Below, in pieces: positions 38,204-50,112 of a stretch of 50,112 bases of DNA. Made by a program: the position numbers and the translations under genes. The notes under the pieces were generated by a model. It was not told where the DNA came from. It saw only the letters and a list, made by a program, of their open reading frames with translations, and searched no databases. Source of the stretch: Girardia tigrina (taxonomy: Eukaryota); contig MQRK01217149.1 in the NCBI GenBank assembly GCA_001938485.1, positions 1 to 50,112 on the forward strand, written 5' to 3'. Each line of letters opens with the position of its first letter. The first letter of the stretch is position 1.

Positions 38204-38604
38204 CGATGATATAAATATATATATGCAATTTTATCATTAAATTAAATTAAGATTTTTTTGACTTTATAAAAAAAAATATTTAAGATATTATTTTTTTCTT
38301 TTTAACTTAATTTACATTAATTTACGAAAACATAAATTTTACTTTATTTTAGAATCCTTTATATAGCGAAATTCTAAATTTAACAAATTCTAAATTTTTT
38401 GAAATATAAAATTAACTTATTTAAATTCTAATCTTAACGAAACCGAACAGTAATAGTAGATGTCATTTATCTTCTTTGTTTTTATTACATGCTAAACGCA
38501 AATAGTGAACAGCATTTGATAGAATAAAATTCTTATCTTTCCGCAAAATGTTACCAAGAATAGAAAAGCATCATTCAACATCAGCCTAGGAGAAGTATAT
38601 AAAT

Positions 38605-38880
38605 TACTCTGTTACTATACAACCCTTCAAAAACAGCGTTTTTCGAGCCTTTTTCAAAGTTATAAAAAAAATATTTTTTTTTTGCACTTTTTTACTGAGA
38701 TACTATACAACCCTTGAAAAAACGCGGTTTTTTGCACCTTTTTCAAAGTTATATAAAAATCAAATTTTTTATCGATAAAACGTATATAATATTCAAAAAA
38801 TCAAATATTTTATCGATAAAACGTATATAATATTCAAAAAATCGAAAAAAATATTGATAAAACGCATATAAAAATCAAAA
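38605..38880. repeat. Subterminal tandem repeats of the Polinton
   Basis: Two ~65-bp copies of tactatacaaccctt.aaaaa..cg.ttttt...cctttttcaaagttata (~38605, ~38693) and 2-3 copies of tttatcgataaaacgtatataatattcaaaaaatc. Confidence 0.75.
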
Positions 38881-38978
38881 TGTTATATTATTTATATCAA
38901 AAATGAGAACTCGAAGAAAAAAAAGTGGATACCAAAAAGCCATACCGTAGTATGGCTAATTGGTATAATATTATTTTA

Positions 38979-39317
38979 TTAAAATGTTCTATAATTAACA
39001 ACGTAATCAAATACTCGATTACGTTTTATTAAATATTTTCTCAAATATTTATCTTTAATATTATAAAATACAGATTCATCAACAAGATCTTCAGAAAAAA
39101 TCTGTTTTTCCTCTTCCGTAAATTCCGTATTTCTTATTACTTCAAGTTCCCAAATAAGTTTTTTGTAAACTTCAAGTGATAATTCTTCTTCCTCCTCTTC
39201 CTCTTCTTCATTATTATTTACAAATACTGTCAAATTATTAAAATAAATAATTTGATTATTATTAAATATTTCTTCCAAATCATACTCATTTAAAAAATTG
39301 AAATTTTTACACACCAT
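38979..39317 (-). CDS. Polinton orphan acidic protein, 112 aa
   Basis: Intact ORF with ataaaaATG context and a poly-Glu tract. Confidence 0.65.
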   Translation of the reverse strand: MVCKNFNFLNEYDLEEIFNNNQIIYFNNLTVFVNNNEEEEEEEEELSLEVYKKLIWELEVIRNTEFTEEEKQIFSEDLVDESVFYNIKDKYLRKYLIKRNRVFDYVVNYRTF

Positions 39318-39417
39318 TTTTATTTAGCGAAAAAATGGGTTTTTCAGGGTTTATTTGTTAAATCAAATAATTTTTTAGGGAAAAATTTTTAAAAAATGTT
39401 ATAATGTTCTAATAAAA

Positions 39418-39951
39418 ATGGAACCAAGTAAAATCGGTGAAGAAATTCGTATGGAGAAAAGAATATTTCGTGAAAATATTTTGAGAAGATATATTCATGA
39501 ATATAAGATTAATCCTCAATTGAAGCATAAGGATTTATGTAATAAAGTTGGTGTTTCAATTCATGTTTTTCGTCGAATTCGTCAAGATTTCGGTATGATG
39601 GAAAGTATGAAATCATATGAACGAAAGTTACCAAGTAGTTCAAAACGAAAACGAAAACCAGCGGAGAAAATTATAAAGCGTGAAAATGGAATATCTGAAA
39701 AACAAAAACTAGAAGATATAAATTCTCAAATGGGCAATTTATCAATTAAACAACAAAAACGTGGAAAAGGAAAAAAAGAAGTTGAAATTGGAAAAGGAAA
39801 AATCGATATCCCTATTGAAACTGAAAATAAACAAGTTATATCTGAATATGAGACTGAATCTGAAACAGAAGTGTTAGCTATATCTGATCAGGAACGAATA
39901 TCTAAAAAAACTAAAGAGGATATGGATATTTTATCAGGTAAAATTGTTTAA
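39418..39951 (+). CDS. Polinton hypothetical protein, probable HTH DNA-binding, 177 aa
   Basis: aataaaaATG context; NPQLKHKDLCNKVGVSIHVFRRIR is HTH-like; basic NLS-like KRKRK. Confidence 0.7.
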   Translation: MEPSKIGEEIRMEKRIFRENILRRYIHEYKINPQLKHKDLCNKVGVSIHVFRRIRQDFGMMESMKSYERKLPSSSKRKRKPAEKIIKRENGISEKQKLEDINSQMGNLSIKQQKRGKGKKEVEIGKGKIDIPIETENKQVISEYETESETEVLAISDQERISKKTKEDMDILSGKIV

Positions 39952-39959
39952 TAATAAAA

Positions 39960-48005: not shown

Positions 48006-48150
48006 CTCGGCGTAGCCTCATCACGTTGAGAAGATTTTGTTTTCGTAGAAAAAAAAATCTTCTCAAAAATGGGTGACTCGCTTCGCTCACCACGTTTTTT
48101 AAGTTATGAAATTTGAAACAAATTTCATAACTTAAAAATGGGTGAATCAA
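47994..48150 (+). promoter_or_regulatory. Hairpin/direct-repeat array upstream of the minor capsid gene
   Basis: Three copies of AAAAATGGGTGA; hairpins at ~48027-48066 and 48096-48138 (perfect 20-bp stem, AAA loop). Confidence 0.6.
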
Positions 48151-49001
48151 GTGGATTTTCTACGACTTTTACAATTTCTGCTGCAAAATCAGAAATTAAG
48201 GTTCAGTTGCCTGTTCAGTTGAATTTGAATCCTAATTATAAATACGAAATCGGATTGGTTTGGTTCTCAACCTATAACCTTGTGGCGAATGTCACAGAAA
48301 GGAATAATGAAATTACATTACTCTATAAAGGAAAAGAATTTCCAGCTGATAAAAAATTTGAAAATGTGGAAAAGTATAATGAATTTGTATATACGGATTT
48401 AAAATTGAAACCAGGAACGAAAGGATTTAAGGAAATCAATAAAGAAATTGGAGATTTAACACAACAAATTATTCAAGTGAAAACCGATGAAAAAACTACA
48501 AAATCANCAATTAATATACCTGAAAAATATTCATTAGAATTCAATCATAGATCATTTCTGCACTCAATGCATGGATTTGATAGAAATAATAATTCTGCAA
48601 TTTGGGATGATGGAGATGATATTAATATTAAAAGGGTTAATATAAAAGGACCAGTGAAAGATTATGAATCGAAATATACTTTTCAAATCACGGATATAAA
48701 TATTTGTAATATCGATTGTAATATTGCAAATGGAGGATACGTTTCGACTGAAGATGGTTTGGAAAATAAAAGTATTAACGAAAGCGTGTGTAACTCTAAT
48801 ATTATTTATTCGTTTCCAGCATTTACAGTTCCAATCGGATACAAGATTTTAGAACGTCCAGCATTTGTAACTTACTATCCTGTTTACATTTATCAAATAA
48901 ATGATTTTACTGTGAGAATTATTGACAACAAAGGACGATTAATTGATTTCCGAAATGAAAAAATAAATATGTGTTTACGTTTAAGACAAAGTGTATTATA
49001 A
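48138..49001 (+). CDS. Minor capsid protein (single jelly-roll, penton-like), 287 aa
   Basis: LPVQLNL..YEIGL, IDCNIANGGY, IIYSFP..VPIGYKILERP..YYPV and IIDNKGRLIDFRNEKI..LRLR. Confidence 0.88.
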   Translation: MGESSGFSTTFTISAAKSEIKVQLPVQLNLNPNYKYEIGLVWFSTYNLVANVTERNNEITLLYKGKEFPADKKFENVEKYNEFVYTDLKLKPGTKGFKEINKEIGDLTQQIIQVKTDEKTTKSXINIPEKYSLEFNHRSFLHSMHGFDRNNNSAIWDDGDDINIKRVNIKGPVKDYESKYTFQITDINICNIDCNIANGGYVSTEDGLENKSINESVCNSNIIYSFPAFTVPIGYKILERPAFVTYYPVYIYQINDFTVRIIDNKGRLIDFRNEKINMCLRLRQSVL

Positions 49002-49003
49002 AA

Positions 49004-49492
49004 ATGATAGAATTCTTTAACTTACAAGATATAATGCAAATGTTCGGAGTTGATACTTCAACAAATAAACAGTTGGAAGAATGGGCAAAAAAATTAAAAA
49101 TTGAAATACAAGTTTTGATGGCTGATGAGGTTGAAGAAAAATTAAATAGATCGAGCGAGTCAAGTTTTTCCCAAGGGAAAAGAACCAAACTTAGTATAAT
49201 AAATTACCAGGATTCGGATGAGGAGGGGAGTCATTGGGTGGGATATTTTAATGGGGATAAAGAATTTGAGAAATACTACTTCGATCCGTATGGAATAGAG
49301 CCTTTACCGGATTTTCCAAAATGTATATATAATTCTGTACAAGTACAACCCTTTGGAACACGATTATGCGGTCAATTGAGTTTATATTTTTTATTTAAAA
49401 TGAATCAGTGTGTATGTGGTAACAAATCACAGAAATTCGATGATATAATTGAGGAAATGTTAGATTGTTTATGGCCAGAAACGCTTTTATGA
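49004..49492 (+). CDS. Adenain-family (adenovirus-like) cysteine maturation protease, 162 aa
   Basis: IINYQDS..GSHWV (His), YFDPYG (Asp), QVQ....LCG (Gln, Cys); aaaaATG at 49004. Confidence 0.92.
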   Translation: MIEFFNLQDIMQMFGVDTSTNKQLEEWAKKLKIEIQVLMADEVEEKLNRSSESSFSQGKRTKLSIINYQDSDEEGSHWVGYFNGDKEFEKYYFDPYGIEPLPDFPKCIYNSVQVQPFGTRLCGQLSLYFLFKMNQCVCGNKSQKFDDIIEEMLDCLWPETLL

Positions 49493-49525
49493 TTTAATTT
49501 TTAAAAATAAAAATTGGAAAAAGAA

Positions 49526-50112
49526 ATGGTACAGTATATTCCTGTGAATAAATTGGGAATGATAATGCAGATTGGAGGAATGCGAGAAGAGAAAATACTT
49601 GAAAAAATTGAAGCAAATAATCGAATAATATTTTCAGAATCGGATAGGAGATATGTGAATACAGAAAAATTAGAAGAGAATAATAAAAAGTTAGATAAGA
49701 TATTTGTGAATGAGCAGGGTGACGATCCTGTGAATTCTTTACGAGTTGAAGAATCACTAATTGTTAAAGATAAAGATATTTATCAGGAAATAGAAAAGAT
49801 AAATAAATTAAAAAAATTTGTTATCAATCCATTGAGTAAAAAATTTGGTAATATGAAAAATGAAATTGAATTATTAGTGAAACAAAATAATGAAAATCAG
49901 GATGAAATTAAGAAAGTGAAAAATGAAATAGAAAATACAAAGTTCGTAAAAATTGAACCAGGAGTAAAAAAGGATTTAATATCAGTGGAAAAAGAATTAG
50001 AAAAAGAATTAAATGAAAAACTTAAAATAAAAATAAGAATAAAACATTCGGAAGAAGTTATATTTCTTGAAGAAAAAATCTTTATTATAAATAGAAAAAT
50101 AAAAGATCTGGC
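49526..50112 (+). CDS. Polinton ORF open to the window end (>195 aa), possible fibre/coiled-coil protein
   Basis: No stop from ATG 49526: MVQYIPVNKLG..SDRRYVN..LDKIFVNEQGD.., followed by a K/E-rich coiled coil. Confidence 0.65.
   Translation, partial: MVQYIPVNKLGMIMQIGGMREEKILEKIEANNRIIFSESDRRYVNTEKLEENNKKLDKIFVNEQGDDPVNSLRVEESLIVKDKDIYQEIEKINKLKKFVINPLSKKFGNMKNEIELLVKQNNENQDEIKKVKNEIENTKFVKIEPGVKKDLISVEKELEKELNEKLKIKIRIKHSEEVIFLEEKIFIINRKIKDL

Follow-up and report, generated by a model that had tools for sequence, protein, structure and literature searches.

What is the compact gene block at the end of a 50,112-nt stretch of the Girardia tigrina draft assembly (GCA_001938485.1, contig MQRK01217149.1; this whole stretch is the window), and how much of it still works as a virus? 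The preliminary description of this DNA called it a largely intact, young Polinton/adintovirus-like endogenous virus with a full morphogenesis module. We read the final 11.7 kb of the window (38449-50112) as the left-hand portion of a probable Polinton provirus (adintovirus-like), fairly recently integrated in an animal genome and with decay likely begun, and give this a probability of about 0.62. The direct observations behind this reading are the gene set, the predicted capsid fold, the catalytic residues, two frame breaks, and a protein fusion and a variant Walker A motif that are common to relatives.

Open reading frames (ORFs) of at least 100 aa cover 0.90 of 38449-50112 and 0.26 of the host flank (1-38448). 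The core genes form a collinear run on the plus strand between 41766 and 49492, without introns and with intergenic spacers of 132 bp or less. The run consists of a packaging ATPase (41766-42665), a PLA2-integrase (42754-44175), the major capsid protein (MCP; 44208-45638), a pX-like core protein (45694-46365), a 111-aa ORF (46424-46759), a split PZ-like gene (46756-48005), a minor capsid (mCP)-like protein (48138-49001) and a protease (49004-49492). The ORF map and the coverage thus bear out a tightly packed, virus-type block, as first described. The element was also said to be free of nested transposons, and no Pfam transposon family is above cut-off among the 16 element ORFs scanned; the strongest match of this type is weak (HTH_Tnp_1, E 0.0017). 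Only one sequence match, 41 bp long, connects the element and the host flank. Element and flank resemble each other in base composition, with GC contents of 0.287 and 0.306 and similar CpG ratios. An Rfam scan returned 0 matches.

The MCP matches Pfam PF21738 above cut-off (E 5.5e-17), and its predicted fold is a double jelly-roll. The structure model, made from 118 sequences, has a pLDDT of 88.1 and a pTM of 0.86. The best Foldseek matches in the PDB are PBCV-1 VP54 (E 1.2e-13) and the Sputnik and mavirus capsids, with E values of ~1e-13 to 1e-12 and TM scores of ~0.5 for the PDB capsids. The majority of the named matches in BFVD are also double jelly-roll capsids, at ~10% identity. A first model from 7 sequences reached a pLDDT of 50, and its Foldseek matches were not used. 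Searching the PDB by sequence with two MCP profiles (A1 and A3) yielded 0 matches, and the fold search alone succeeded. The protein also contains a Ser/Thr/Glu-rich insertion of ~40 aa (window positions 44640-44780), which is missing in the five nearest aligned relatives and is modeled with low confidence.

The same module occurs at twelve metagenome loci and at twelve loci in prokaryote genome bins, the latter likely eukaryotic DNA placed in the wrong bins (related loci are given L numbers below). Profiles from such loci were ranked against the 765 ORFs of the window. The pX-like ORF is a stand-alone protein of 223 aa with ten GG/GxG motifs, and it ranks first of 765 with a profile of five relatives (E 1e-13). 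The pX member of L013 has a sub-threshold match to Pfam Adeno_PX (E 5e-4). The mCP-like protein (287 aa) is homologous to a conserved gene of the relatives, with a tblastn match to L008 at E 4e-27 and rank 1 of 765 with a profile of four relatives (E 2e-29). It has no Pfam match, and we take it to be the minor capsid (penton) protein, a family label that no search returned. The Adenain/Ulp1-type maturation protease (162 aa) has His, Asp, Gln and Cys motifs that line up with those of the relatives. Its Pfam Peptidase_C5 match is below cut-off (E 0.0088), while the profile of relatives ranks it first of 765 (E 2.5e-15) and L008 matches it at E 7e-15. The gene at 46756-48005 is a conserved Polinton gene. 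We presume it to be PZ/GasderminX from its C-terminal motif rather than from alignment to a named sequence, and an Atlas search gives no match for it. Domains, profiles and capsid fold together support a full morphogenesis gene set of a Polinton/adintovirus-like element. The fibre proposed at its end did not stand: the Lys/Glu-rich ORF at 49526-50112 (+), truncated by the window end, has no support from Pfam, PHROGs or Atlas, and BLASTP to a relative's fibre-like ORF gives E 0.63.

The ATPase is of the A32/FtsK type (299 aa; Pfam Pox_A32 E 5.8e-9, above cut-off). The Walker B and RGRH motifs are conserved, and the Walker A motif is a variant common to its clade. The final residues of Walker A are Lys-Asn in this protein and in 8 of 79 homologues, and 8 of the 9 nearest share them; the other homologues have Lys-Thr (62) or Lys-Ser (1), or lack the region (8). 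The nine Lys-Asn ATPases form a single group with an SH-aLRT support of 99 in a tree of 39 rows, at 47–82% identity, which argues that the motif is inherited and not a product of decay. A lesion of this copy is ruled out, since 8 homologues carry the same residues. The non-canonical P-loop is a clade trait of this putative packaging motor.

The PLA2-integrase shows an unusual domain combination. A PLA2 domain (PF08398, E 2.3e-9) and an rve integrase (E 2.8e-9), both above the Pfam cut-offs, lie in one frame (42754-44175, or to 44192 with a displaced tail). The integrase was compared with 120 listed homologues out of 372 matches, a set in which query and length filter favor fusions. The D-D-E triad (Asp200, Asp282 and Glu315) agrees with 118, 119 and 117 of these 120, respectively. 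The His-Asp dyad of PLA2 is present, as it is in 78 of the 82 listed homologues that cover this region. In the PLA2 loop, Leu replaces the third Gly; this variant is ruled out as a lesion, as 3 of the 120 have Leu too. Of the 120 homologues, 69 combine both Pfam domains in a single protein, a coral protein among them, and the fusion is therefore not exclusive to this element. Judged from these homologues and from the ATPases, the fusion and the Lys-Asn Walker A are lineage traits and not peculiar to this copy.

In 71 of 74 fusions the stretch between the two domains contains a basic residue and then G(x)G, compared with 0 of 73 integrase-core control stretches of equal length. Gly-Gly-type sites are cleavage sites of Ulp1/adenain proteases. 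This preference and the ten such motifs in the pX-like protein suggest that the basic/Gly-x-Gly boundary is likely a site for the viral protease. L013 and L015 each have a DUF5679-PLA2 gene directly before a separate integrase gene, suggesting that the fusion likely arose by joining of neighbors. A different Polinton integrase fusion is seen in L017 (9566-10972), where a 469-aa frame contains an adenain-like protease, an rve integrase and a chromodomain. In the literature searched, which did not extend to Repbase, to bioRxiv supplements or to most subscription journals, no description of the PLA2-integrase fusion or of the Lys-Asn Walker A was found. The fusion is absent from the searched portions of PMC3671162, PMC11131425 and 10.1101/2023.08.22.554363 (here and below, papers are cited from the portions of their text that were available). 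Polinton lipases have been proposed to assist entry (PMC4642659).

The MCP, mCP, ATPase and protease frames are open, in agreement with the preliminary description, with a single N at 48507 within the mCP gene, and the catalytic residues agree with those of homologues. Three single-nucleotide indels in homopolymer runs had been proposed, near 41685, 44127 and 47110. The second and third are real breaks in the assembled sequence as we read the frames, and the first is plausible. The integrase frame stops before the C-terminal G-x-[FM]-Y-x-x-E-L motif, which 92 of the 120 listed homologues carry. A similar motif, of the G-x-F-Y-x-x-(E/D)-L type, is found in a second frame that is open only at 44127-44192. 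This second frame has two stops just past a run of seven A (44114-44120). The break therefore lies outside that run, near 44125-44136. The PZ-like gene is a single frame in all three relatives compared (L008, L013 and L015) and two frames here, overlapping at 47091-47154. Against a profile of these three relatives the C-terminal piece gives E 7e-8 and the N-terminal piece a weak E 0.036, and the two rank 1 and 2 of 765. AAA precedes the first ATG in 13 of the 16 element ORFs (background 51 of 344 ATGs) and GAA in one; in the remaining two the start context is clearly poor, and these ORFs lie behind the proposed breaks at ~41685 and ~47110. At ~41685 the first in-frame ATG is poorly placed, and an out-of-frame ATG at 41703 has the usual context of the element.

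The integrase break removes a conserved C-terminal motif, so the copy is likely impaired, and as assembled it is likely non-autonomous. With the integrase tail and the PZ-like gene split in the assembly, the element falls short of "intact" by the standard of PMC8097293, under which all core ORFs are unbroken. A young insertion is likely, on the open frames and the few lesions.

The breaks of this same provirus might instead be sequencing or assembly errors, for example from a collapsed multi-copy family, in which case the true copy would be coding-intact and could be active. The draft does have placeholder gaps and the stray N within the mCP gene, and the core genes contain no in-frame nonsense stop. 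Two of the breaks are at T/A runs, but slippage in vivo strikes the same runs, the integrase break is outside the long A run, and 12 runs of at least 7 bases sit in open frames. Of 18 listed sequencing runs, 7 hold part of the sampled words of the element and none holds half; X1 and X2, which share one organism label and one study, hold 0.48 and 0.42 and may contain the source sample itself, and X4-X7 hold 0.09-0.20. The coverage of just 0.48 in the top run is as expected of variant copies. Of vertebrate Maverick loci, 96% were degraded (PMC8097293). We consider the error explanation unlikely and prefer a provirus with real, early decay.

The lineage is divergent, as had been supposed. The MCP has 9 close matches, the best at 41%, and a profile search gives 1943 representatives. 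In an MCP tree (FastTree; 108 rows, length-filtered, five near-duplicates excluded) it groups with three other rows at a support of 99 and a highest identity of 45%, and nothing found is closer. Scans of IMG/VR with the MCP alignment, the integrase and the integrase alignment gave no relative. L008 has the MCP, pX, ATPase, PZ-like, mCP and protease genes in a different order. L013 additionally has PLA2 and an integrase, as well as a protein of 1326 aa that contains an endonuclease VII domain, has a DTDS motif and is likely a polymerase. Separately, L013, L014, L015, L017 and L022 are Polinton-type elements of 9–15 kb. The contigs that contain them are labeled as bacterial genome bins, and their DNA is likely eukaryotic and mis-binned.

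With Polintons/Mavericks (Polintoviricetes; Eupolintoviridae in the NCBI taxonomy) the element shares the rve integrase with its D-D-E triad, the A32/FtsK ATPase, the adenain-like (Adenain/Ulp1) cysteine protease, the double jelly-roll MCP, the compact intronless layout and, as putative features, an mCP-like gene and an imperfect AGT-type end. It differs in the Lys-Asn Walker A and in an MCP at 45% identity or less, and pPolB, a right terminal inverted repeat (TIR) and a target-site duplication (TSD) are not seen in the window. The core set of vertebrate Mavericks (int, atp, Mcp, mcp, pro, pz) is shared, given the presumed mcp and pz labels; their core genes are on two converging strands, whereas every core gene seen here is on one strand (PMC8097293). 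Adintoviridae is a proposed family name, and its Alpha and Beta classes are set by PolB, pfam03175-type or divergent; a PLA2-pX protein is described as typical of Alpha and GasderminX as typical of Beta (PMC8502044). The element shares with the Beta virion module (Terrapene type; GasderminX, Cupiennin) the PF21738-type MCP, as in L013 and L015, and the PZ/GasderminX-like gene, if our presumed name for it is right, but it has PLA2, called characteristic of the Alpha module in PMC8502044. It shares with the Alpha PLA2X (Mayetiola type; 'CAP' of insect Mavericks, PMC5803895) a parvovirus-type PLA2 with His-Asp and pX-like sequence. However, in PLA2X the PLA2 is joined to pX and apart from the integrase, and in insect Mavericks it is on a separate gene (PMC5803895), while here it is joined to the integrase, pX stands alone and no PLA2 with a C-terminal pX is present.

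Polintons are defined by pPolB together with the RVE integrase (PMC11161782), and this leads to a second alternative, an integrase-bearing Polinton-like (MELD) virus that uses a superfamily 1 helicase or another replicase in place of pPolB and is not a strict Polinton. Such elements are known (Tlr1 and the Trichoplax MELD virus; PMC11161782, PMC8502044), and the integrase of the latter is among our matches (P0257, 34%). pPolB was not found in the window, and the contigs of all close relatives are too short to reveal a replicase. Large adenain-bearing elements in animal datasets mostly carry PolB, however (PMC8502044), and the PF21738 type of MCP is also found in L013, which has the polymerase-like gene. 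A MELD virus is thus quite improbable, and a Polinton with its polymerase further to the right fits better.

The left terminus is tentatively placed at 38449..38460 (+), at an imperfect AGT-type end motif that is unique in the window. Published Maverick ends read (AGT)2 or (AG)3 and are flanked by a TSD of 6 bp (PMC8097293), and the 6 bp preceding 38449 would be the left copy of the target site. Subterminal repeats follow at 38593..38895 (two copies of ~53 nt, 89 bp apart, and a 41-bp tandem repeated 3.1 times); they are likely inside the left TIR, and their inverted partner is not found within the window. An N gap lies at 38034-38083, and the element starts 365 bp to its right, with the junction in contiguous sequence. 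Left of the junction is AT-rich DNA with a (TA)n tract. It is highly improbable that a free virus or an element of another organism was joined to host DNA at this gap by the scaffolder: the gap is near, the nearest relatives come from metagenomes and other assemblies and contaminant adintoviruses are documented (PMC8502044), but the contiguous junction after (TA)n DNA places the element in some eukaryotic DNA, its GC and CpG ratios are similar to those of the flank, and X1 and X2 hold 0.48 and 0.42 of its words under one label.

Two observations concern the gaps themselves. A RING-finger-like Cys/His pattern (37907-38137, -) has its main part left of the 50-N gap and a Cys pair on the right, and may mark a host exon that extends across it; the match (Pfam E 0.016) is too weak to prove continuity. 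About 100 bp is repeated on either side of another 50-N gap (32622-32671; repeat within 32520-32730), so the gaps seem to be placeholders at sites where neighboring contigs overlap.

Several points weigh against a Polinton provirus as proposed here. No polymerase motif is found in 38449-50112, which is cut by the window end, and neither the right end nor a TSD is within the window. L013, the sole relative with a polymerase-like gene in view, falls in a distant MCP clade. The match to the left end motif is imperfect, and the true end could be 6 bp further inward. The host-like DNA between the element and the scaffold gap is only 365 bp. The stand-alone PLA2 proteins of L013 and L015 also end with the boundary motif, which is thus not fusion-specific and may be structural instead of cleaved.

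The remaining ORFs of the element are mostly small. To the left of the core run are a 112-aa acidic ORF (38979..39317, -), a 177-aa basic ORF that may encode a DNA-binding protein (39418..39951, +; the source of the HTH_Tnp_1 match, below cut-off), a 59-aa ORF with a hydrophobic C-terminal segment (39960..40139, +; Pfam matches sub-threshold only), a 171-aa ORF (40136..40651, +), a 105-aa basic ORF (40788..41105, -) and a coiled-coil-like ORF with a 21-bp tandem repeat, likely broken near its start at ~41685 (41163..41703, -). The 112-, 171- and 105-aa ORFs have no family match, and no homologue was found for the coiled-coil-like ORF. The 111-aa ORF within the core run is basic, has no family match and is possibly a core protein.

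The host flank is an intron-rich eukaryotic locus with an Rpt4/PSMC6 gene, TACO1-like exons and pieces of Tc1/mariner, LINE, gypsy-like and SWIM-bearing transposons. The Rpt4/PSMC6 gene (7257-16868, -) has at least four exons, with one intron of ~50 bp and others of several kb; the long introns contain part of a LINE reverse transcriptase and a mariner HTH piece. Bit scores of the last Rpt4 exon are 110 with mammalian PDB entries, 89.5 with 8amz_L and 74.6 with yeast, suggesting that the host is likely an animal. TACO1/YebC-like exons are at 23913-24245 and 30473-30679 (+; Pfam E 7.5e-7 for the second), and a gypsy-like element lies between them (27796-29935, -). A Tc1-like transposase (31241-32261, +) retains long HTH (E 1.7e-9) and DDE (E 1.3e-28) frames on the two sides of a 151-N gap. 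This element is apparently fairly young, and heavy decay of the neighboring transposons had been overstated. A non-coding repeat shared by 12380-12900 and 34130-34830, with an inverted copy at 34520-34830, is likely a MITE family. The preliminary description is largely right on the element, its gene set and its open capsid frames; its fibre is unsupported.

From Polinton biology we infer how such a virus would work. A protein-primed polymerase, with its gene to the right of the window, would copy the excised linear genome, and the ATPase would package this genome into a shell of MCP and mCP. The protease would mature the particle by cutting Gly-rich sites of the pX-like and other core proteins. 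The fusion suggests that the integrase is packaged together with the lipase. In the mechanism proposed here the PLA2-integrase precursor would enter the particle and then be cut at the basic/Gly-x-Gly boundary; PLA2 would breach the endosome, the integrase would arrive alongside the genome, and its rve domain would insert the viral DNA into the host. With its integrase tail and PZ-like gene broken, this copy would likely need help from an intact one; it could still be a source of capsid proteins. As a tentative and rather doubtful extension, the element may represent a spreading, undescribed Polinton lineage whose virion carries a PLA2-integrase precursor cut by the protease, as retroviruses carry integrase, and whose motor has a Lys-Asn P-loop. 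No Maverick particles had been observed as of PMC8097293.

The class is already known and common, and the addition made here is a lineage that has a PLA2-integrase precursor and whose P-loop is a variant. The locus is a single copy, partial and likely damaged, of a class widespread across animals, and alone it changes little. The Lys-Asn ATPase clade is a trackable lineage marker, and the conserved lipase-integrase fusion, in which a cleavage site is likely, gives a testable hint that the integrase may travel in the particle.

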